A stretch of DNA of 32,000 nt from the NCBI GenBank assembly GCA_001897305.1, contig MKSO01000001.1:120001-152000 (forward strand). The letters run 5' to 3'. Source of the stretch: Candidatus Saccharimonadota bacterium. Lineage in GTDB: Bacteria; Patescibacteriota; Saccharimonadia; Saccharimonadales; Saccharimonadaceae. The position numbers and the translations under genes were made by a program. The notes beneath the pieces were generated by a model. The model saw only the letters and a list, made by a program, of their open reading frames with translations, was not told where the DNA came from and searched no databases. The number at the start of each line of letters is the position of its first letter. Position 1 is the first letter of the stretch. Shown here in pieces: positions 8,049 through 31,821 of the stretch.

Positions 8049-8064
8049 TCTTGGTACAATCTAA

Positions 8065-8090
8065 AAAGAAGGCCCATTGGGCCTTCTTTT
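8065..8090. terminator. intrinsic terminator after the pilin gene
   Basis: AAAGAAGGCC-CATTG-GGCCTTCTTT hairpin flanked by an A-run and a T-run. Confidence 0.8.
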
Positions 8091-11228: not shown

Positions 11229-12487
11229 TGGTAAGTAACATGAAAAACATAAGCACATCAAAACAGAGTGGCGCCGTATCACTATTTGTGGTCATTTTTG
11301 CGATGCTTATTATTACCGTCGTTACCATTAGCTTCCTGCGTTTGATGATGGTTGACCAAAGCCAGGCCAGCGATACGGACTTATCCCAAAGTGCTTACGA
11401 CTCTGCCCAGGCTGGGGTAGAGGATGCCAAGAGGGCGTTGCTGCATTACCAGCAGGTGTGTAGTTCAACGCCATCACTCTGCGCAACCCTAGCTTCTAGT
11501 TTATCCTCAGACGTCTGTAATGCAGCCGTTTTGATTGATGGAGTTGTACCTTCATCGAGCGTTAAAGGCGGCACGCCAAGTACGCCTGGTGAGATTATGG
11601 TACAGCAATCGACCAGTGCAACAGATGCGATTCTGGACCAGGCTTATACCTGCGTTACGATGAAGCTTGCGACACAAGATTATGTTGGTCAACTTTCGGC
11701 AGATGACAGCCAGATAGTCCCTCTTATTAGTGAGTCACCTTATGATACGGTGACCATCCGATGGTTCAGTCGTGACGACCTCGCCGATTCAACTGGTGCG
11801 CTTGATTTACAAAACGTTGTTTCCGGGGCTCTTCTTCCAGAAAAAACCCAGGCCGGCTGGCCAACAACCCGGCCATCGTTAATGCGTGCCCAGCTCATTC
11901 AGTTTGGTAGTTCGTTTAAGCTCGATGGGTTTGATTACGTAAAGGACAGTGGTGGAACAACTCAAAGCAATGCTAACACGGTATTCTTGTACCCAAGCTC
12001 TTCTGCTGGCGCGAGTACTATCGACTCTTTCACGGCACTTGATACGCGCAAGGACAGTCCTACCGATGAACCTGATGCAGATTCTCCTACTAATACACCA
12101 AAGACAGTACGATGCCTTCCTAATATTAGTGGTGGCGGCTATGCATGTAGTATGTCGCTTCGGCTTCCAGAGCCAATTGATGGTGGCGGCCGCACGGCAT
12201 TTTTGCGATTGACGTCGCTTTATAATAAGTCTCATTTCCAGGTAGTTCTTACTAACGGCGGCGCTCCAGATACGGGCGGTACAAATATCATCAAATTTAA
12301 GGATGTTCAGCCCGAAGTCGATTCAACAGGGCGGGCAAACGATATCTTTAGGCGGGTTCAGAGCCGTGTAAACCTATATGACACAAGCTTCCCATACCCA
12401 GATGCCACAATTGATATTACTGGTAACTTCTGTAAAGACTTTGGCGTGACGGATAGCCAGTATATTGCCGGAAGCTGTACTCCTTAG
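11228..12487 (+). CDS. PilX-like large minor pilin / possible tip-associated protein
   Basis: The hydrophobic N-terminus SGAVSLFVVIFAMLIITVVTISFLRLM has no Glu at +5, a PilX_N-like pattern. It is 419 aa, shares a TAATG overlap with the upstream gene, and is the last gene of the operon. Confidence 0.6.
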   Translation: MVSNMKNISTSKQSGAVSLFVVIFAMLIITVVTISFLRLMMVDQSQASDTDLSQSAYDSAQAGVEDAKRALLHYQQVCSSTPSLCATLASSLSSDVCNAAVLIDGVVPSSSVKGGTPSTPGEIMVQQSTSATDAILDQAYTCVTMKLATQDYVGQLSADDSQIVPLISESPYDTVTIRWFSRDDLADSTGALDLQNVVSGALLPEKTQAGWPTTRPSLMRAQLIQFGSSFKLDGFDYVKDSGGTTQSNANTVFLYPSSSAGASTIDSFTALDTRKDSPTDEPDADSPTNTPKTVRCLPNISGGGYACSMSLRLPEPIDGGGRTAFLRLTSLYNKSHFQVVLTNGGAPDTGGTNIIKFKDVQPEVDSTGRANDIFRRVQSRVNLYDTSFPYPDATIDITGNFCKDFGVTDSQYIAGSCTP

Positions 12488-12622
12488 TTTTTCACGCCAG
12501 CCAGCAGTTTTAAGCTATAAGGAAATATCTGCAGCCCGAGTCTGAACGGGACGCTGGCGCCCGAGAAGACCCGGTGCGAAGCCATTTCCGTTAGATTGAA
12601 GCTGCTGGCTGGCGTGAAAAAC
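12487..12622 (-). repeat. gene-terminal rod-hairpin element, copy 1 (sense on minus strand, 3' of the xerC-like gene)
   Basis: The outer arms 12487-12507 and 12602-12622 are a perfect 21-bp inverted repeat. The 69-nt core at 12521-12589 is the reverse complement of the copy-2 core, differing by one C indel. Confidence 0.8.
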
Positions 12623-12628
12623 GAAGAA

Positions 12629-13555
12629 TTAGCGCTCGCTATGGAACTTTTCGTACACATCTTTTAGGTGGGCGTCGGTAACGTGAGTATAAATTTGGGT
12701 GGTAGAAATGTTACTGTGGCCGAGCATACTTTGTACGCTCCGCAGGTCGGCGCCGTTCATGAGAAGGTCGGTTGCAAAGCTATGGCGCATGGTGTGTGGG
12801 CTCACGTGCTTGGTGATACCAGCGAGTCGAGCATATTTGTTAATCATCCGCTGGATGCTACGGGCGGTAAGCCGACGATAATCGCCGCTAGTATTTGCCT
12901 CAACATTGCGGCTATAGCTAATAAACAGGGGGGCGAGTGTGTCTTGGCGCATGGCTAGGTACTGCTCAACCCAATCGGCGGCTGCTTGGCTAATAAAGAC
13001 CGGTCGATCCTTTTGGCCTTTACCGCGCACCATAAATTCGCGTCGCTTAGTGTTAATATGGTCGCGGTTAAGGTTTACAAGTTCCGAGACACGCAAACCA
13101 CTTGAGAATAACAGTTCAAGGATGGCACGGTCTCGCAGGCCGCTTTCCTCGTTAGTATCCACTTGCTCAAGCAGACGACCGACTTCATCGTAATGAAGGA
13201 AGGTGACTTGTTTGCGGTGGGTTTTAGGGAGTTCAATTTTATCGGGCGAGAGGGAAGGGATGTCGCGGCGGGAAAAGTATTTCAAGAAGCCGCGGAGGGC
13301 AATCAGGTGATAGGCTTGGGTAATCATAGCCAGCTCTTCGCCACGCTCGTTCTTTAACCGATTAAGCCACAGGCGATACTTACGAATCAGTTCGCTGGTG
13401 ATCTGGTCTGGGGTAATATCACCGGCAAATTCCACAAAACGGTTTAAATAGAATTCGTAGTTTTCGGCAGTTCGCGGCATGCGGCCGCCCTCAACCTCAA
13501 GATGCTCGATGAAGTCAAGAATATACTCTGAAACAAATTTTTGTTCGTAGGCCAT
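12629..13555 (-). CDS. xerC: tyrosine site-specific recombinase, XerC/XerD type
   Basis: It has an N-terminal SAM-like core-binding domain and a C-terminal catalytic region with R...HTMRHSFAT...LGHSNISTTQIYTHV (the R-H-R-Y family motifs). Confidence 0.9.
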   Translation of the reverse strand: MAYEQKFVSEYILDFIEHLEVEGGRMPRTAENYEFYLNRFVEFAGDITPDQITSELIRKYRLWLNRLKNERGEELAMITQAYHLIALRGFLKYFSRRDIPSLSPDKIELPKTHRKQVTFLHYDEVGRLLEQVDTNEESGLRDRAILELLFSSGLRVSELVNLNRDHINTKRREFMVRGKGQKDRPVFISQAAADWVEQYLAMRQDTLAPLFISYSRNVEANTSGDYRRLTARSIQRMINKYARLAGITKHVSPHTMRHSFATDLLMNGADLRSVQSMLGHSNISTTQIYTHVTDAHLKDVYEKFHSER

Positions 13556-14945: not shown

Positions 14946-15077
14946 TGTCGAAAATCGATACAAGACAGTATCTACCGGAAATGGCTTCGCACCGGGTCTT
15001 CTCGGGCCGCCAGCGTCCCGTTCAGACTCGGGCTGCAGATATTTCCTTGTAGATACTGTCTGCACCGATTTTTGGCA
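14946..15077 (+). repeat. gene-terminal rod-hairpin element, copy 2 (3' of ndk)
   Basis: The outer arms 14946-14975 and 15049-15077 form an imperfect ~29-bp stem that includes G-U pairs. The core at 14977-15046 begins GGAAAT-GGCTTCGC and ends GCTGCAGAT-ATTTCC. Confidence 0.8.
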
Positions 15078-18063: not shown

Positions 18064-18096
18064 AGCTACGCATTAATCTATTTGAATTCTGACCAC

Positions 18097-18127
18097 GAAA
18101 AAAGTTCACCGAAAGGTGAACTTGTTT
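18097..18127. terminator. bidirectional intrinsic terminator (sodA / tRNA-Asp)
   Basis: AAGTTCACC-GAAA-GGTGAACTT hairpin flanked by an A-run on the plus strand. That A-run reads as a T-run on the minus strand, downstream of tRNA-Asp. Confidence 0.75.
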
Positions 18128-18129
18128 CG

Positions 18130-18207
18130 TGGCGGGCCCGACCGGATTCGAACCGGCGATCTCCTCCGTGACAGGGAGGCGTGATAGGCCAGCTTCACTA
18201 CGAGCCC
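18130..18207 (-). tRNA. tRNA-Asp (anticodon GUC)
   Basis: The reverse complement folds as a cloverleaf: acceptor GGGCTCG/CGGGCCC, anticodon loop CTGTCAC, T loop TTCGAAT, and an encoded CCA. Confidence 0.92.
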
Positions 18208-18824: not shown

Positions 18825-20534
18825 ATGTCGAAGTACCTCGATGACCTCGAGCTGCCGCTTGGAAAGCGTAGTCGATTTTATCGCTTCTTCGAGATGTTCC
18901 CAGCTATTATTAGCTACGGTGCTTTTATTCTTCTTATAGTCCTTTCGTTAGTATCACCGCTACTAGCAGCTATTTACCTTATGCTGGTTATTATCACGCT
19001 TTTAATTAGAGCGGTTGGTATCGTCTACCATACCCTAGCGGGTCACAGGCGTTTGGTGAAGTCTCAGCGTGTTCATTGGGCGCATCGCCTGGCCGAACTT
19101 GAGACACCAAAAGAGGCCTACGAAACCCATAGCCACAGCCGCCCAGAGGGCTATGGCATGCTGCAACATATTGAAAACTTGCGGCTGATCGCTGCCGATG
19201 AGTCCGGTTCTTTCCCGAAACCATCAGATGTATACAATATGGTCATTGTTGCTGCTTATAACGAAGCTTATGAGGTATTGGAGCCTACCATTCGTTCGCT
19301 AACAAGGGTGACCTATGACCAAAAACGGCTTATTGTAGCGCTGGCTTACGAAGAGCGTGGCGGTGAGGCTATTGAACAAACGGCGCAACGCCTCGCCGAA
19401 GAGTTTAAAGACGTCTTTATGACCTTTCAAATTATTAAGCACCCGCGTGACTTACCGGATGAGGTAGTTGGTAAGGGTGGCAACATTACCTACGCCGGTA
19501 AGCAGATGCAGCAATGGGTCGATCAGCAGGGGATTGAATACAAAAATGTGCTCATTACCACCCTCGACTCTGATAATCGCCCGCATTCTGCTTATTTCGA
19601 CTACGCTACCTACGAGTATATTGTCAACGAAGACCGCAAGCACTTAGCTTACCAACCAATTGCCCTGTTCTTAAACAATATTTGGGATGTTCCAGCGCCA
19701 ATGCGCGTGGTAGCAACAGGCAATACCTTTTGGAATATTATTAGTTCAATGCGCCCGCATTTAATGCGTAACTTCGCCTCGCACTCGCAACCGATGGATG
19801 CGCTAGTAGAGATGAACTTTTGGAGTACTCGCACAATTGTAGAGGACGGCCACCAATTTTGGCGTAGCTACTTTTATTTCAATGGCAATTATTCGGTGCA
19901 TCCGCTGTATATCCCTATCTATCAAGATGCCGTTCTCGACAATACCTACCTAAAAACCTTTAAAGCGCAGTTTATACAGCTACGTCGCTGGATGTATGGT
20001 GCTTCGGATATACCATTTGTAGCCGAGAAAGTGTTTACCAATAAACGTACCGTACCATTTTGGCCAGCCTTTGTATGGTTTATACGCGGGCTTGATGGGT
20101 ATGTAACGGCTGCTTCTGTCTCCATTATTGTCGCGGTGGGCGGATGGGTTCCTTTGCTTATTAATAATCAGGCGTACCGCGATGTTGTGGCGCACCAGTT
20201 ACCAGATACGATTGCCCTGTTTCAACGGATTGCTTTAATCGGTATTATTGTCATGGTCTACTTGTCATTTAAGCTGTTGCCGCCTCGTCCAGAACGATAC
20301 AAGCGTTCACGTACTTTCTGGATGTTGGCTCAGTGGGTGCTGATGCCGTTAACGGCTATCGGGTTCCTGTCATTCGCTGCCTTGAACGCGCAGGCGCGCC
20401 TCTTCTTTGGGCGTTATCTTACGAAGTTTGATGTTACGAATAAGGCCACGGTGGCCTCTAGGGAAGCACTGAAGCATGCTGCCAAGAAAAACGAACCAAT
20501 ACGGGTAAGTGAAGTCGATATCGAGCGTCCATAA
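18825..20534 (+). CDS. membrane-embedded family-2 glycosyltransferase, processive synthase type
   Basis: Start reassigned to ATG 18825 (RBS AAGGTAGGGG). It has N-terminal TM helices, a GT-A core with VIVAAYNE, TTLDSDN (DxD), TIVEDG (ED) and QLRRW (QxxRW), and several C-terminal TM helices. Confidence 0.8.
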   Translation: MSKYLDDLELPLGKRSRFYRFFEMFPAIISYGAFILLIVLSLVSPLLAAIYLMLVIITLLIRAVGIVYHTLAGHRRLVKSQRVHWAHRLAELETPKEAYETHSHSRPEGYGMLQHIENLRLIAADESGSFPKPSDVYNMVIVAAYNEAYEVLEPTIRSLTRVTYDQKRLIVALAYEERGGEAIEQTAQRLAEEFKDVFMTFQIIKHPRDLPDEVVGKGGNITYAGKQMQQWVDQQGIEYKNVLITTLDSDNRPHSAYFDYATYEYIVNEDRKHLAYQPIALFLNNIWDVPAPMRVVATGNTFWNIISSMRPHLMRNFASHSQPMDALVEMNFWSTRTIVEDGHQFWRSYFYFNGNYSVHPLYIPIYQDAVLDNTYLKTFKAQFIQLRRWMYGASDIPFVAEKVFTNKRTVPFWPAFVWFIRGLDGYVTAASVSIIVAVGGWVPLLINNQAYRDVVAHQLPDTIALFQRIALIGIIVMVYLSFKLLPPRPERYKRSRTFWMLAQWVLMPLTAIGFLSFAALNAQARLFFGRYLTKFDVTNKATVASREALKHAAKKNEPIRVSEVDIERP

Positions 20535-23777: not shown

Positions 23778-24089
23778 ATGCAAAACAACAGCGAATTTCG
23801 AACTAAAGTCGAAGCTTTGATGGCTCAAGTCCCTGCCGGCTCCGTGACAACGTACGGAGACTTAGCTGCCCTGGCTGGGCACCCATATGCTGCGCGCATC
23901 GTAGGTGGTATGGCACATTACGGCGACCCCTCTTTGCCATGGCATCGGCTAGTGAATCGCTTTGGTGGTTTGGCTGCGGGCTATCATGGGGGCAGGCGGG
24001 CACAAGCTGAGCACTTGGCGGCTGAGGGTATTACCTGTACTAATGATATAGTGGACAATTTTAAGGAGGTGCGATGGCGACCTCTGTGA
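23778..24089 (+). CDS. alkyltransferase-like (ATL) DNA-damage-sensing protein (MGMT DNA-binding domain without the catalytic Cys)
   Basis: It has the MGMT/Ogt C-terminal fold pattern VPAGSVTTYGDLA...AR.VG, but the active-site PCHR is replaced by PWHRLV, as in YbaZ/Atl1-type ATLs. Start set at ATG 23778 (RBS AGGAG). Confidence 0.8.
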   Translation: MQNNSEFRTKVEALMAQVPAGSVTTYGDLAALAGHPYAARIVGGMAHYGDPSLPWHRLVNRFGGLAAGYHGGRRAQAEHLAAEGITCTNDIVDNFKEVRWRPL

Positions 24090-25003
24090 ATAACGAATTG
24101 AACACAAAAAATACTCAAATAAGGGCTACTAATGGAGCGCCCTTAATAGTAGTTGTGGGCCCTACAGCAAGTGGCAAGTCGGCAGTTGCAATGCGGCTTG
24201 CGAAGGCGCTTAACGGTGAAATTATTTGTGCGGACTCACGAACAATATATACACACATGGATATCGGAACCGCGAAGCCAAGTGTTCAGGATAGGGCTGA
24301 AGTACCACATTGGGGCTTGGATTTAGTTGAACCTGGTGAGGTTTTTACAGCAGCTGATTTTAAACAATATGCGACCAAAAAGGTTGCTGAGATACGAAAG
24401 CGAGGGCATGTTCCGCTACTTGTAGGCGGCTCCGGTTTGTATGTAGATGGAGTTATTTTTGATTACACATTTGCTCAGCCAAGCCCGGAAAGGCGCGCGC
24501 AGCTCGAAAAACTGACACTCGAAGAGCTAAAAGAGTATTGTGCTAACAACAACATATCGTTACCTGAAAATGATAAAAATCGTCGCTACGTCATACGAGC
24601 GATCGAACGTCAAAATGATCAAACTAAGAGGTTATCTGAACCCATCGACAATACAATTATTGTAGGAATTGCAACAGACAGAGATGTCCTTCGACGGCGA
24701 ATAGAGGCTCGCAGTGAACAATTGTTTGAACAGGGAATGGTCGAAGAAGCTATTTTATTGGGCAAAAAATATGGCTGGAATTCTGAAGCAATGACTGGCA
24801 ATATTTATAAACTCGTTAAGCAATATACGGACAAGCAACTCACTTTAGACGAACTAAAACAAAAAAATACCATTGCCGACTGGCAGCTCGCAAAACGTCA
24901 ACTTACGTGGTTTAAACGCAACCCATTTATTCAATGGTTGCCACTCAATGATGTTTATGAATATGTACAAGAGCGGTTGATTGCCACCAAGCAAGCTGAG
25001 TAA
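24074..25003 (+). CDS. miaA: tRNA dimethylallyltransferase MiaA
   Basis: P-loop VVVGPTASGKS, plus DSRTIY and MDIGTAKP motifs. RBS AAGGAGG. It overlaps the ATL gene by 16 nt. Confidence 0.92.
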   Translation: MATSVNNELNTKNTQIRATNGAPLIVVVGPTASGKSAVAMRLAKALNGEIICADSRTIYTHMDIGTAKPSVQDRAEVPHWGLDLVEPGEVFTAADFKQYATKKVAEIRKRGHVPLLVGGSGLYVDGVIFDYTFAQPSPERRAQLEKLTLEELKEYCANNNISLPENDKNRRYVIRAIERQNDQTKRLSEPIDNTIIVGIATDRDVLRRRIEARSEQLFEQGMVEEAILLGKKYGWNSEAMTGNIYKLVKQYTDKQLTLDELKQKNTIADWQLAKRQLTWFKRNPFIQWLPLNDVYEYVQERLIATKQAE

Positions 25004-25110
25004 CGTAATTTACTAAAGCCGGCTTCAGGCCGGGTTCCGATGGGGTCTCTACGCCCATCTCCACTCGGCTTGCAGATGGCGTTTAGAAATTAGTTACTCA
25101 GCTTGCTTGG
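24987..25110 (+). repeat. gene-terminal rod-hairpin element, copy 3 (overlaps the miaA 3' end)
   Basis: The outer arms 24987-25004 and 25093-25110 are a perfect 18-bp repeat, extendable to ~31 bp with small bulges. The 5' arm contains the last 5 miaA codons and the TAA. The core is at 25021-25077. Confidence 0.8.
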
Positions 25111-25169
25111 CGCACCCAACCCCTTTGTGCTATCATAAAAGCAATAAATGTGAACAAAGGAACAGGGGA

Positions 25170-25784
25170 ATGATAGACAAATTGTTCGGCTCGAAAACGC
25201 GCGTAAAGCTGCTGCATCTATTTATGAACCATCCTGGTCAATCTTTTTATGTTCGTGAGATTACACGTCTTATTGACGAACAAATTAACTCGGTGCGTCG
25301 TGAGCTTTCAAATATGCTCGAAGTCGGCGTCATTACCAGCGACACGGCCGACAACAAGCTGTATTACCAAGTAAATCAGCGTTACGAATTTTATACAGCT
25401 TTGCGAGCCATTTTTGCTGGTGAGCCAATTACTGCCGAGCAGGTTGGTCCAACCAACTCTGATGGCGTTAATGAACAACACGTCGCCCTCATTAACGAAA
25501 TCCCGGCGCTACGCCTGGCGCTGTTTGCGGGCGTGTTAGTGAAGGGCTCGATTTCGCCAATCGACATTCTGTTGGTAGGCAACTTACCAGCAAACAAAGT
25601 AAAGGCCGCTATTGCGATGATTGAAAAGTTGGAAGGTCGCGAAATCAACTACACTGTCCTGCCATACGATGAGTTCTATTATCGCCTTAGTGTTCGCGAC
25701 CGGTTTATTACCGAAGTATTGGCCGGTAAGCATAGTGTGGCAATAGACAAAGATAACGTACTTGGTGAACACATTCAGAAGTAG
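25170..25784 (+). CDS. winged-helix (ArsR/MarR-like) DNA-binding protein with an uncharacterised C-terminal domain
   Basis: Start reassigned to ATG 25170 (RBS AGGGGA), because the TTG at 25107 lies inside repeat copy 3. The N-terminal FGSKTRVKLLHLF...YVREI...INSVRRELSNL pattern is wHTH-like. TGCTATCAT lies at 25128-25136. Confidence 0.65.
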   Translation: MIDKLFGSKTRVKLLHLFMNHPGQSFYVREITRLIDEQINSVRRELSNMLEVGVITSDTADNKLYYQVNQRYEFYTALRAIFAGEPITAEQVGPTNSDGVNEQHVALINEIPALRLALFAGVLVKGSISPIDILLVGNLPANKVKAAIAMIEKLEGREINYTVLPYDEFYYRLSVRDRFITEVLAGKHSVAIDKDNVLGEHIQK

Positions 25785-26468: not shown

Positions 26469-27464
26469 ATGTATTCGCGCCTGGGCAGCCGAAGCGGCTT
26501 TACGATTGTTGAACTGCTTATTGTAGTTGTAGTTATCGCTATTTTGGCGGCAATAACAATTGTTGCCTACAATGGCATTCAGAACCGGGCCAAAATATCA
26601 GCGGTAACATCTTCTATCGAAAGCGCTGTGAAGGCTATTGAGATATACGCACTGAAGAATGCCGATACATACCCATCGGATGCAGCCGCAGCTGGTTTGC
26701 CGAGTGGGAGCACTACAACGTATGAAGTTTCAAGTAATAATACAACGACTCCTAAGTCGTATTGTGTCACCGTAACGTTGAACGGCTTAACATACTTTCA
26801 AACAAGTGCTTCGCAAAAGGCATTGCCAGGTACATGTATGGGGCTCGCTGCGTGGTGGCCGTTTAACGGTGATGCGAAAGATATGAGCGGTAACGGTGCT
26901 GATGGTACTGTGAACGGTGCGTTACTTGTGGCAGGTGCGAATGGTTCTGCTAATAGTGCTTACCAGTTAGGCGAGTCGAGTCAGTATATCGCTATGGGTA
27001 CGCCGGCAAGTCTTTCGAATATACCGAGTGCGTTTACATACTCAGTATGGGTTGCGAGAACCGGTACTTCAACTGGTCAGTGGCCGCAAATTATGGGTGC
27101 TTCTGACACGCACGTTGGTTTTGGTATTCGTAGCTCAAATTACGGCACAAACGTCTACTTTGAGTGGGGAACCGCACCATATAGTGGCGCAACCTTTACT
27201 GGGACAGGTAACAATGGTGTACTGAGCACACTAAATGACTGGCATTTAATGACAGTAACGTATGATGGTTCGAAGGTATTAGCATACTGGGATGGGGCTC
27301 TAAAATCTACGAGCGGCACCACGACCTTGCGTCCAACAATGGCAAGTTTCTCGTTTACAACGAGCTCGGGTGGATGGCAGGGAAAGGTTGATGATGCCCG
27401 TGTGTATAATCGTCCACTGACGGCGGCGGAAATCCAAACGCTCTATTCGGCGGGCGCCCAATAA
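26469..27464 (+). CDS. type IV pilin-like protein fused to a LamG/concanavalin-A-like lectin domain
   Basis: The N-terminus SG/FTIVELLIVVVVIAILAAITIVAYNGIQNRA is a classic prepilin with Glu at +5. The C-terminal ~200 aa has Laminin_G_3 hallmarks (WWPFNGDAKDMSGNG...G..G ... W..V.VTYDG ... VDDARVYNRPLTAAEI). Confidence 0.8.
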   Translation: MYSRLGSRSGFTIVELLIVVVVIAILAAITIVAYNGIQNRAKISAVTSSIESAVKAIEIYALKNADTYPSDAAAAGLPSGSTTTYEVSSNNTTTPKSYCVTVTLNGLTYFQTSASQKALPGTCMGLAAWWPFNGDAKDMSGNGADGTVNGALLVAGANGSANSAYQLGESSQYIAMGTPASLSNIPSAFTYSVWVARTGTSTGQWPQIMGASDTHVGFGIRSSNYGTNVYFEWGTAPYSGATFTGTGNNGVLSTLNDWHLMTVTYDGSKVLAYWDGALKSTSGTTTLRPTMASFSFTTSSGGWQGKVDDARVYNRPLTAAEIQTLYSAGAQ

Positions 27465-27496
27465 AAAAGCTTCGCATTTAGGCGAAGCTTTTTTAT
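27463..27496. terminator. bidirectional intrinsic terminator (pilin-LamG / rpmB)
   Basis: AAAAAAGCTTCGC-ATTTAG-GCGAAGCTTTTTT. Confidence 0.85.
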
Positions 27497-27513
27497 TAAG
27501 ACCGAAATGGAAG

Positions 27514-29797: not shown

Positions 29798-29804
29798 TAA
29801 TAAA

Positions 29805-29933
29805 GGGGATCAGCAAAGTCTCCACCTCTCTTTTCGGATGGCTTCGCGCTGGGTTTCGACAGGGTCTCTACGCCTGTCTCACCTCAGGCTGCAGATATCG
29901 CTCAAAGAGAGGTGGAGACTTTGCTGATCACCC
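29805..29933 (+). repeat. gene-terminal rod-hairpin element, copy 4 (3' of the Nudix-RNase H gene)
   Basis: The outer arms 29808-29833 and 29904-29929 are a perfect 26-bp repeat, with GGG/CCC beyond a 1-nt bulge. The core is at 29840-29896 (GGCTTCGC...GGCTGCAGAT). Confidence 0.8.
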
Positions 29934-29940
29934 TTATCCT

Positions 29941-29957: not shown

Positions 29958-30326
29958 GGCAGCCAGCTGGACGGCCGCTTGTCCAAAAGACAAGAGGAAA
30001 GTCCGGGCAGCATAGGACACGACAGTCGCTAACGGCGACCGGGGGTAACCCTAGGGAAAGTGCCACAGAAACAATACCGCCTCGCTACAAAAAGGTGTTA
30101 TCAGGTGAAAGCTCGGTAATTACCAAGAGGTAAGGGTGAAATGAGTGGGGTAAGAGCCCACAGCGTCATATGGTGACATATGGAGAAGGTAAACCCTGTC
30201 GGCTGCAAGGAGATCAACACAAAAGAGTAGTCCGCTCGTTGGTCGATACCCGCTTGAATACGCTAGTAATGGTGTATCTAGATAGATGGTCGTCCTCGAC
30301 AAAACCCGGCTTACAGGTTGGCTGCC
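29958..30326 (+). ncRNA. rnpB: RNase P RNA, bacterial type A
   Basis: Universal signatures are present: GAGGAAAGTCCGGGC (P4 5' strand), ACAGAAA, GGTAAGGGTGAAA, GTAAGAGC and ACAAAACCCGGCTTA (P4 3' strand). P1 pairs GGCAGCCAG with CAGGTTGGCTGCC. Confidence 0.93.
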
Positions 30327-30328
30327 AA

Positions 30329-30359
30329 TAAAAACGCCCTCTTCTACGAGGGCGTTTTT
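30329..30359. terminator. bidirectional intrinsic terminator (rnpB / minus-strand membrane protein gene)
   Basis: AAAAACGCCCTC-TTCTAC-GAGGGCGTTTTT. Confidence 0.85.
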
Positions 30360-30360
30360 C

Positions 30361-31821
30361 TTATAATCGAAGTTCTTTAAAGGCCTTGAGGGCGATGGTG
30401 AGCATTTTGTTGTATTCTTCCGCACTGATGACCGTACTTGAGTTGACTAGGGATTTCACCATAAATAGCGTAGTGTCAGCGACTTCTATGTTGATGCCGG
30501 GGTCATTGTCGTATAAATATGCCATAAAGCCGGGGTTTATGAGTTCGAAAGAGGCTAGTCGGTCGGCATTCGTGGCGTATACCTCGTAACGATTGTTAAA
30601 ATCGGGCCATTCGTAAGTGTATTTTTTATAATTTTTTGGCATCCCCGAGAACGCTTTGAGGAAAGGGAATACTTTTGTCTTGCGCCTTACGACAATCCCT
30701 TCGTAAGAACGGGGGAGGGTAAGCTGGACGATGAGCATATTGGCTGCGCTGTTCTTTGGATTCGGATTGTAGGTATAGAGCTGGAACAGCAGCCCATTGT
30801 AGTAACCGATCGTATGGTTATTGATATCACTGACACCAAATCGGCCGCTTCCTAAGAGGACCCCTCTTTTTGGAATGAGCAGCCACCCCATATCAAGTGA
30901 ATAATACAGTCCATTTTGCTGTGCAAACTGAATAAGTGATTGGTTAGCTTGTCGTTTATCGGCGGTTTGCTGGGCAATGTCCGCTAGTAGCCAGGTGGTT
31001 TCACTGCGCACAAAGGTCCAGGCTTCTACGAATGAACTATTGTCTGTATATAACACCGAGCCATCGGTGTCGATTAATTGGTCTTTTGCTGTTGCTTCAA
31101 ATAATACAGTATAGGTATCTTTATTGGCTGCAGATGTATCGTCTACGGCATCAATGATGGCAGCACCACCAATACGTACGTTGCTCATTCTATTTGTTCG
31201 GCCAAGTTCTTTTAAAGCTTGTAGTAAAAGGGCGCTATGTTTTGCATAATCACGGGTGGTGTAGGTAGTGATACTTGCAAGGTTGAATTGCGACCAATCT
31301 TCTTGGTAGCGTAGGAAGCATTGACGTGCGTAGTCGAGCAGACTCGCTTCGTTCCAGCTAGCATCGGACTGACTGGCTTTTGCTATGGTTTGTCGTGTTT
31401 TTTTGATACGATTCGCAAGACGCTCCCATAGCCCGAAGAAGGCGGTAGACCACCCGATCCATATACCTATGGTTATAACAGAGGCTACGTAGATGCTAAA
31501 GAACCCACCGAGCATAAAGCCGATTATGAGTAGAATAATACTTACAAGGCTTGCGAAGGTTGCGCTGATAATAAGTTCAAGCTTTCTAGAGAAGAATTTC
31601 TTGATCAACTTACCTAAGTAGTGGCTCGGAACGGCTCCGAGCAGTATGAGGAATTCCGCACCGCCTCCGCCTCCGCCGCTACTAGAAGAGCCGCCACCAC
31701 CGGCGCGGGCGATGAGCTCTAGAGATGGAATTATAGAGAAAAGTGAATTGAACATAGGTAGTTCTATAGTACCATGCTGGGCATATTGGTGGGTGTATAA
31801 ACCAAACAAAAAACTGGCCAC
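30361..31821 (-). CDS. membrane protein with a Gly/Ser-rich tract, a Tim44-like (NTF2-fold) domain and a DUF3137-like C-terminal domain
   Basis: A long ORF containing GGGGSSSSGGGGGG, 3 TM helices, then W..F.R....W.L..I.Q-type Tim44-like features and a C-terminal region resembling DUF3137. These domain calls are by eye and tentative. The GTG start at 31821 is doubtful. ATG 31755 lies 10 nt after TGGTACTAT (31774-31766) and is an alternative. Confidence 0.7.
   Translation of the reverse strand: MASFLFGLYTHQYAQHGTIELPMFNSLFSIIPSLELIARAGGGGSSSSGGGGGGAEFLILLGAVPSHYLGKLIKKFFSRKLELIISATFASLVSIILLIIGFMLGGFFSIYVASVITIGIWIGWSTAFFGLWERLANRIKKTRQTIAKASQSDASWNEASLLDYARQCFLRYQEDWSQFNLASITTYTTRDYAKHSALLLQALKELGRTNRMSNVRIGGAAIIDAVDDTSAANKDTYTVLFEATAKDQLIDTDGSVLYTDNSSFVEAWTFVRSETTWLLADIAQQTADKRQANQSLIQFAQQNGLYYSLDMGWLLIPKRGVLLGSGRFGVSDINNHTIGYYNGLLFQLYTYNPNPKNSAANMLIVQLTLPRSYEGIVVRRKTKVFPFLKAFSGMPKNYKKYTYEWPDFNNRYEVYATNADRLASFELINPGFMAYLYDNDPGINIEVADTTLFMVKSLVNSSTVISAEEYNKMLTIALKAFKELRL

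Follow-up and report, generated by a model that had tools for sequence, protein, structure and literature searches.

We examined a 32,000-nt stretch of DNA from a Candidatus Saccharimonadota bacterium (contig MKSO01000001.1, positions 120,001 to 152,000; hereafter the window), in which the 3' end of miaA, the gene for tRNA dimethylallyltransferase, runs directly into a long hairpin. This hairpin is the third of four copies of a repeat found in the window. Homologs of the window MiaA carry the names Candidatus Saccharibacteria and Microsaccharimonas, placing the host close to Candidatus Microsaccharimonas. Comparison with related loci identifies the element as a palindromic intergenic repeat, probably shaped by template switching, with an inverted pattern of conservation, from a previously undescribed family.

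Anatomy and folding of the hairpin at the miaA end

The features around the end of miaA, including copy 3 of the repeat, are the following:

24074-25003, plus strand: miaA coding sequence (tRNA dimethylallyltransferase), an open reading frame matching Pfam IPPT at E=1.9e-51
24987-25004, plus strand: 5' outer arm, CCAAGCAAGCTGAGTAAC, made of cc of a Thr codon, the codons K-Q-A-E, TAA and C
25005-25092, plus strand: interior, 88 nt, block-inverted in some relatives, covariance-model score 95 bits
25009-25089: conserved unit of copy 3, 81 nt, inside the interior
25021-25077: core of copy 3, 57 nt, inside the interior
25093-25110, plus strand: 3' outer arm, GTTACTCAGCTTGCTTGG, exact reverse complement of the 5' arm
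25107-25136, plus strand: promoter-like site of the downstream gene (TTGGCG, 18 nt, TG-n-TATCAT)
25170-25784, plus strand: conserved downstream gene (MIDKLFGSKTRVKLLHLF...), without a Pfam match, serving as the anchor when filled sites were compared with empty ones

The two outer arms are 18 nt long, 100% complementary and 88 nt apart. Their perfect complementarity, first pointed out in a sequence-only reading of this DNA, was borne out by the sequence itself and by a repeat search. The 17 final bases of miaA, including the TAA stop codon (25001-25003), belong to the 5' arm; the earlier description of this arm as the last five codons, TAA and one further nucleotide is accurate apart from the first base of the Thr codon, which the arm does not include. 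By our own arithmetic, about 1e-4 perfect 18-nt inverted repeats within 200 nt are expected per 32 kb. Inward of the outer arms, imperfect pairing goes on to a total of about 45 bp, the whole hairpin from 5' arm to 3' arm spanning 124 bases. A 139-nt region covering copy 3 adopts a rod-like fold, with -77.3 kcal/mol for the plus strand, against -39.3 +/- 3.9 kcal/mol for shuffled sequences (z = -9.8; 0/200 shuffles equally stable), and -73.1 kcal/mol for the minus strand. The interior lacks a promoter and is self-complementary at about 73%. Downstream, the -35-like hexamer of the promoter-like site overlaps the end of the 3' arm, and the TGnTAnnnT motif is kept at all orthologous miaA sites.

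Filled, empty and apparently deleted miaA sites across relatives

The 3' ends of miaA in relatives were gathered via exact-protein look-ups and a metagenome scan, the resulting loci (L numbers) being a sample among the matches listed; a MiaA scan of genome contigs led to two Saccharibacteria loci. The following sites carry the element, with MiaA identity given relative to the window:

Window, L105 and L106: identical strain
L002: 96%
L001: 91%
L003 and L004: 84%
L005: 83%
L006: 82%
L104: 71%
L103: 70%
L007, L020 and L031: 67%
L015: 65%

The element is present at miaA in all sampled relatives with at least 65% MiaA identity, except L107, where it has apparently been deleted secondarily. Filled sites share recognisable arms, ..GAGTAAC on the 5' side and GTTACTCA.. 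on the 3' side (GTTAGC as the 3' variant of the LKS group, defined below), and the 5' arm is orthologous across the clade, its end always being ..GAGTAAC or a variant. At L014 (MiaA 71%), the outer arms are kept around a different interior, a 190-nt rod (L014:1405-1615), which may represent a second repeat family or a replaced interior. This L014 hairpin folds at -102.7 kcal/mol without a match to Rfam or to our covariance model R1 (see below), and its arms form more than 30 perfect bp, including K-S-stop.

Beyond this clade, 12 of the 12 outgroup miaA sites (L008, L016-L019, L021-L024, L026, L028 and L033) lack both the element and any palindrome, and in them 0-10 nt separate the miaA stop codon from the extended -10 element of the conserved gene downstream. 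The arms did not, then, pre-exist as a plain palindromic terminator at empty miaA sites, and insertion of a core into the loop of an existing terminator, a scenario raised by the sequence-only reading, is ruled out for miaA by these hairpin-free outgroup sites. A neighbour-joining tree of MiaA, without bootstrapping, places the taxa that carry the element in a single group, which points to a single old insertion at miaA.

L107, from a Ca. Microsaccharimonas metagenome-assembled genome, is nested in the element clade by the MiaA tree, yet its miaA site is empty. The tail of its MiaA, ..Y-I followed by I-G-S-V-T-S-L-stop, is encoded by sequence that lies 3' of the 3' arm in filled sites: TTGGCTCAGTCACCTCTTTGTGA followed by TACTAT in L107 matches TTGGCTCGATCACCCCTATTGTGA followed by TACTAT in L015. 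The protein also lacks the conserved K-x-x-L. We read L107 as a probable secondary deletion of tail and palindrome, in which the promoter spacer was recruited as a new C-terminus. About 21 kb sampled from this lineage (the same region in two assemblies) contained no unit. At L107:10868-10975, the TG in the extended -10 of the following gene comes from the TGA stop of MiaA; the outgroups share this arrangement, their miaA stop TGA being the TG of TGnTATGAT.

The MiaA coding tail predates the hairpin

Outgroup MiaA tails (L016, L017 and L028) read Y-x4-L-x4-K-S-stop, those of the widespread 309-aa KSE group Y-I-K-x-x-L-x4-K-S-E-stop, and that of the window Y-V-Q-E-R-L-I-A-T-K-Q-A-E-stop. The tails of outgroups and element clade match in length and K-S spacing, with one additional residue in the element clade; it follows that the coding tail is older than the hairpin and that most of the 5' arm was already coding sequence beforehand. 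The element can have brought, at the very most, the terminal Glu and the TAA. Of the two origins that the sequence-only reading had offered for this stem, the first, in which the element gave MiaA a new C-terminus and stop codon, consequently fails for the tail and survives for no more than one Glu codon plus TAA. As judged from the relatives, the miaA stop codon is not tied to the arm: in L007 translation ends at an earlier TAG, so that the entire arm is no longer coding although the frame is kept (R-L-R-stop, then V-R-G-T-E-stop); L020 has a 1-nt indel and its stop is TGA; and in L031 the stop lies 10 nt upstream.

The two arms change together. Between the window and L001, GCTGAG/CTCAGC has become GCCGAG/CTCGGC, a change that is synonymous in an Ala codon of miaA and is matched in the 3' arm; in the arms of copy 4, CCACC/GGTGG has become CCGCC/GGCGG. 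The KSE group has the arms GAAAAGCGAGTAAC (5') and GTTACTCACTTTTCC (3'), and the LKS group (L103 and L014) has GAAAAGC, a three-position gap and TAAC on the 5' side, with GTTA, a three-position gap and GCTTTTCC on the 3' side, an apparent one-codon (GAG/CTC, Glu) difference mirrored on both arms. L103 carries an extra 8 bp on both arms (CCGCACAC/GTGTGCGG), and in L005 three changes in the 3' flank lengthen the pairing by 7 bp into the coding sequence. Unmatched changes of a single arm are also seen (L005 and L104), indicating that arm correction is episodic. Arm mismatches show no mRNA-sense excess, with about 6 G.U-type pairs on the sense strand versus 9 on the antisense strand by hand count.

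The mirrored compensatory and indel changes favour the second origin proposed earlier, in which the 3' arm is an inverted copy of the adjacent sequence. This holds at miaA; at copies 1 and 2 both arms are absent from the empty sites.

Interior flips between relatives

A feature that the sequence-only reading missed is that the segment between the arms is inverted between relatives. The interior of copy 3 in L001 matches that of the window at 87/88 positions as reverse complement and at 64/88 directly, the partial interior of L006 matches the reverse complement of the window at 56/57, and the interior of copy 4 in L001 agrees at 69/70 as reverse complement versus 45/70 directly. Four sister pairs are discordant at miaA (L001 vs window plus L002, L005 vs L006, L007 vs L015, and L020 vs L104), which implies at least four independent flips. 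The flipped copies bear their own lineage-specific substitutions.

L105 and L106, from two unrelated metagenome assemblies, are identical to the window over 12,930/12,930 nt, so that both copies have one orientation in three independent assemblies. Such agreement makes rapid switching within populations unlikely. Together with perfect arms of only 18-19 nt, below the usual assembly k, it also indicates that the flips are not assembler noise. The exact MiaA sequence of the window strain is indexed in 98 blocks of the collection, marking it as a very widely sampled clone. The short-read contigs L003 (L003:12395-12431), L004 (at the contig end) and L006 (L006:10935-10987), from different samples, end inside the conserved core, and repeat-induced assembly breaks explain these ends.

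A segment flanked by inverted repeats and found in both orientations, although between lineages only, recalls a phase-variable inverton, in which a site-specific invertase would flip the segment to switch miaA or the downstream gene, and a tyrosine recombinase gene does adjoin copy 1. However, the arms differ wholly between copies, leaving no common recombinase site, and flipping a promoterless interior that is largely self-complementary changes little. The identical strain has one orientation at both copies in all three assemblies, and the contig ends within the repeated core have the ordinary cause just given. We regard an inverton as very improbable.

Four copies of one conserved unit

Besides copy 3, the window holds three further copies of the repeat:

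12487-12622, minus strand: copy 1, unit 12515-12595, between the convergent PilX-like and xerC genes
14947-15076, plus strand: copy 2, unit 14971-15052, between the ndk stop codon and the tRNA-Arg promoter
29800-29937, plus strand: copy 4, unit 29828-29908, between a NUDIX-RNase H gene and the RNase P RNA gene (29959-30329)

In each copy, an 81-nt quasi-palindromic unit is nested in a long palindrome whose outer arms are unrelated from copy to copy. The cores lie at 12527-12583 (minus strand), 14983-15040, 25021-25077 and 29840-29896 and follow the pattern GGCTTC..C.GGGT..(small hairpin)..CTC.G..TGCAGAT. The covariance model R1 found about 25 instances, all in loci with MiaA at least 65% identical to that of the window, and none in the outgroup loci searched. 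Rfam 15 gave no match to the unit across the whole window at gathering score, no meaningful match in the copy 3 region at E<=10 and none for the L014 variant at E<=1; on the window and four related loci it returned tRNAs, RNase P RNA and tmRNA only. Searched by BLAST against the collected loci, the unit and the interior of L014 retrieved other copies only, and in the literature on palindromic repeats of Saccharibacteria and Patescibacteria we found no description of the element. The core pattern matched one viral contig, in a high-GC coding region scoring 16 bits with R1, which was taken as chance. Among the loci sampled, the family is confined to a single Microsaccharimonas-like clade of Saccharibacteria.

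An alignment of 16 distinct units describes an 81-nt rod of 27 pairs, 17 of which show compensatory change, with one invariant G.U pair and a fixed U.C mismatch and bulges; the G.U position can pair only on the unit-sense strand. Across 19 distinct sequences, 93.2% of cells are paired, versus 79.5% in shuffles and 30-47% with slid partners, and 84 double-sided changes stand against 5 one-sided ones. So few one-sided changes are what one-step complementary copying predicts. The asymmetries (G.U at columns 25-58, the U.C mismatch and the bulges) are kept in 18 of the 19 distinct copies over deep divergence. Their retention keeps RNA-function and DNA-signal explanations, and with them a function for the unit, under consideration.

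Most copies directly follow a stop codon, and the majority have the same sense as the gene before them. Elements also occur just upstream of tRNA-Arg, RNase P RNA and tmRNA, with the promoters of those genes between element and gene. The tmRNA copy separates tmRNA from a divergently transcribed ComM/ChlI-like gene (L005:19590-19740, with tmRNA at 19776-20181; L001:20680-20850), and copy 2, copy 4 and the tmRNA copy make up three site classes about 30-70 nt upstream of stable RNA genes. Yet another copy follows a Lactamase_B_3 gene in L003/L004 and L020 and is missing there from the window, L001 and L005.

These positions bear on an explanation in which the element is a functional structured RNA module of 3' untranslated regions (UTRs), for example a hairpin for RNase III or one forming an exonuclease barrier, or else a transcriptional insulator, with the unit as a protein-binding RNA; it would separate the upstream mRNA from the next promoter or stable RNA gene. 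The very stable fold, the strong covariation, the invariant G.U pair with its pairing on the unit-sense strand only, the placement after stop codons in the sense of the upstream gene and the location of copies 2 and 4 before tRNA-Arg and RNase P RNA all agree with such a role. Orientation, however, has flipped and become fixed in lineages, copies 3 and 4 of L001 both being antisense, and the third copy of L005 and L001, upstream of tmRNA and beside a divergent gene, is not in a 3' UTR at all. The promoters of the stable RNAs leave the element outside those transcripts, ordinary terminators are present elsewhere in the window, and the outgroups and L107 manage without the element. Covariation almost without G.U intermediates (5 vs 84) and arm mismatches without sense-strand bias (about 6 vs 9, by hand count) also argue against such a module. 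We consider an RNA module unlikely, though it is the strongest of the rival explanations.

Several further observations were made on the units. Three units of L005 (10948-11004, 16190-16246 and 19639-19695) carry the identical apical segment TTTCGATGGGGTCTCTACGCCCATCTCAAC; the orthologous copies of the window and of L001 have apical segments that differ among themselves, a pattern suggestive of gene conversion among the copies of one genome. In L104:4855-4870 (minus strand) and L103:10985-11000, the inner stem beside the unit contains GCCGTCTGAA, the 10-mer Neisseria DNA uptake sequence, and L095 and L020 have GCCGTCTGCA. The window carries a type IV pilus operon, and Saccharibacteria are naturally competent; the match is probably a coincidence.

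Other sites, junctions and terminators

The copy 2 site is empty in L100/L101, with the junction GCTAA joined to TCTGTTAAAAT, and is filled in L095/L098 by an element with entirely different arms and a different unit subtype. The copy 1 site is empty in L095/L097/L098/L100. At the empty sites of copies 1 and 2 neither window arm is visible; no direct repeat is found at either junction of the filled ndk (copy 2) site, and no direct or inverted target duplication is demonstrable at the copy 1 and copy 2 sites. A small hairpin (GGCTGG/CCGGCC) in relatives with an empty copy 1 site was considered as a precursor; its strands are arranged opposite to the window arms, and the resemblance was treated as a coincidence. 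In L096, the ndk protein, 5' arm and unit are the same as in L095 (L096:1874-2000), and synteny breaks at the 3' arm, the next gene encoding a phosphoribosyltransferase instead of tRNA-Arg, so that a rearrangement breakpoint falls at the element.

Copies 1 and 2 have 82-84 nt in common at 96% identity, and their long 20-bp arms already differ. Counted as 12515-12596 and 14970-15052, they are 96-97% identical over about 82 nt and bracket xerC-bacA-ndk in inverted orientation 2.4 kb apart. Such bracketing could allow inversion of the xerC-bacA-ndk block; L100, without the repeat, has the same gene order.

The varying presence of the element among relatives, the L096 breakpoint, and near-identical units in different 20-bp arms are what would be expected of a DNA-level signal (hairpin, cruciform or duplex) read by a dedicated protein, with arms and flips as by-products of the enzyme. 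Candidates would be the transposase or recombinase of an uncharacterised mobile system that duplicates its target in inverted form, a signal for uptake or recombination, or a nucleoid site. Such a signal would also accommodate an element that works in either orientation and keeps the same asymmetric positions through deep divergence. Against it, no candidate protein was found in any flanking region examined, a lineage without the element (L100) likewise has the XerC-like gene that adjoins copy 1, and copies 1 and 2 lack demonstrable target duplications. A dedicated DNA signal strikes us as doubtful, and we rank it behind the RNA module.

The junctions of copy 1 are as tight as previously reported, the left arm starting at 12487, the G of the PilX-like TAG, and the right arm ending at 12622, 6 nt from the xerC stop codon (12629-12631, minus strand). 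The proposal that such tightness implies a special mechanism does not stand by itself, because an ordinary terminator of the window also overlaps a stop codon; tight junctions alone reflect genome compaction. The canonical bidirectional terminators of the window, each with A-run, stem and T-run, are:

27460-27497: overlapping the stop codon of a pilin-like gene (26469-27464)
30327-30362
18093-18132
8064-8090

The terminator scan did not report copy 3 and listed, for copy 4, only a small sub-hairpin within the left arm. Identity with an intrinsic terminator, which would have a short GC-rich stem, a loop of 3-8 nt and a following U-tract, was rejected for a hairpin of about 45 bp with a 57-nt structured core and no T-run. 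We give hardly any credence to the idea that the element is a drifted ordinary terminator or that its flips are assembly artefacts. It is a hairpin at a gene end, and assemblers can mis-orient loops between inverted repeats longer than k. Yet it has no U-tract, a stem far longer than those of the canonical terminators and a 57-nt core common to unlinked loci; the perfect arms (18-19 nt) are shorter than the usual assembly k, orientation is reproducible in three assemblies of one strain, and flipped copies have substitutions of their own lineage.

Comparison with known systems

Repetitive extragenic palindromes (REP and REPIN elements) are mobilised by RAYT transposases. The present repeat resembles them in being a multi-copy intergenic imperfect palindrome forming long hairpins (four per 32 kb here and about 25 in related loci), in lying just after stop codons in either orientation, in varying in presence among relatives, and in keeping conserved mismatches, thought to be read in folded form. 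REPINs, however, conserve their arms and a 5' tetranucleotide, whereas here the central 81 nt are conserved and the arms are locus-specific. No RAYT (IS200/IS605-type TnpA) Pfam domain was present among the listed neighbours in the window and flanks of up to 10 kb, amounting to about 0.5 Mb of flanking sequence, and IS608-like TTAC targeting was ruled out on the junction sequence.

Bacterial miniature inverted-repeat transposable elements (MITEs) such as Correia, ERIC, RUP and NEMIS are likewise short, non-autonomous intergenic hairpin repeats that can be co-transcribed, but they end in conserved terminal inverted repeats and are flanked by direct target-site duplications; the present repeat showed neither. 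Integron attC sites share the imperfect palindrome and the precedence of structure and extrahelical bases over sequence; in attC the ends are conserved (RYYYAAC / GTTRRRY), and the middle is variable, the reverse of the present layout, and the sites flank cassettes beside intI. Identity with attC was rejected because GAGTAAC/GTTACTC of copy 3 does not fit RYYYAAC and the other copies lack it, and because the neighbours (miaA, ndk and RNase P RNA) are housekeeping genes.

Quasi-palindrome correction occurs in Escherichia coli. Template switching is reported to make perfect stems, multi-base compensatory changes and inverted loops (Monttinen & Loytynoja 2022, PMC8794818). The likeness is close: perfect stems as inverted copies of adjacent sequence, mirrored changes and indels, stem extension and inversion of the whole loop. 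At miaA one arm is an exact inverted copy of adjacent sequence that is mostly pre-existing, which is not demonstrable at copies 1 and 2, and clustered mirrored changes, stem extension and loop inversion are distributed along the phylogeny. Template switching is nevertheless a generic process that explains neither a conserved 81-nt unit at many loci nor the spread of this unit.

Hairpin-associated small inversions in plastid genomes were reportedly described by Kelchner and Wendel in 1996. Such inversions, including recurrent inversion of hairpin loops, are covered in a review (PMC12371153). They resemble the flips described here in being recurrent, homoplasious inversions of a loop between short inverted repeats with no dedicated invertase, and differ in belonging to an organelle, in loops that do not form one repeat family and in having no comparable coding overlap.

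Origin and possible role of the repeat

Our best account, to which we give a probability of roughly 55%, is a REP/MITE-like palindromic repeat whose arms are made and kept matched by template switching or arm-to-arm conversion. Copy 3 would have been inserted at miaA in an ancient event and then retained orthologously, its 3' arm being a templated inverted copy of miaA coding sequence. Arm complementarity would be upheld by arm-to-arm copying, the likely routes being replication template switching at the quasi-palindrome or gene conversion or recombination within the palindrome, and the same copying process would occasionally invert everything between the arms. Dispensable C-terminal residues of MiaA would then co-evolve with a non-coding arm; that these residues are dispensable is suggested by L107, whose MiaA takes its C-terminus from the promoter spacer after the apparent loss of tail and palindrome. 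The hairpin occupies the one permissive slot of a compact genome, bounded by the stop codon and by the extended -10 promoter that follows.

With its orientation unconstrained, the element is unlikely to serve the miaA transcript as a strand-specific RNA. Any role of the hairpin would be orientation-independent, that of a generic hairpin or cruciform or of a selfish element rather than of a strand-specific cis-acting RNA; it may act as a generic RNA or DNA structure, or the element may be neutral.

Several points weigh against this account of a repeat with copied arms. The arm-copying model leaves the retained asymmetries of the unit unexplained, and these suggest recognition by some factor. 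Copies 1 and 2 combine near-identical units with different arms, so arm formation may be part of insertion; their arms are not traceable to empty-site sequence, and a templated copy of the flank is shown at miaA only. The difference between the KSE and LKS groups can alternatively be aligned as a GAA-to-TAA point mutation creating a stop codon, also mirrored on the other arm. The data do not separate template switching from RecA-type recombination between arms, and the MiaA tree is an unbootstrapped neighbour-joining tree.

A bolder suggestion, to which we attach a low probability, is that the 81-nt unit is the recognition module of an uncharacterised Saccharibacteria DNA transaction system acting on hairpins or cruciforms. 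If so, this system could be a mobile element whose insertion builds an inverted target duplication, or a structured recombination or uptake signal. An inverted duplication built upon insertion would explain why copies 1 and 2 are near-identical within different perfect 20-bp arms, and the retained G.U pair, U.C mismatch and bulges would be the protein's handle.

On the reading of a palindromic repeat with copied arms, the family has a layout (conserved centre and locus-specific arms) that is the reverse of REPs and MITEs, and it sits in the ultra-small genomes of Saccharibacteria, where non-coding DNA is scarce. The miaA copy provides a natural case in which the C-terminal codons of a protein and the arm of a non-coding hairpin evolve as a unit, including an apparent mirrored codon-sized indel, and repeated flipping of the loop of a long hairpin, known mainly from plastids, is seen here in a bacterial lineage. 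In practice, short-read assemblies are broken by these repeats, contigs ending in the core, and a loop that has flipped may be mistaken for clustered single-nucleotide polymorphisms. The repeats also mark points of rearrangement and deletion in these genomes, as in the synteny break of L096 and in the apparent deletion that rewrote the C-terminus of MiaA in L107.

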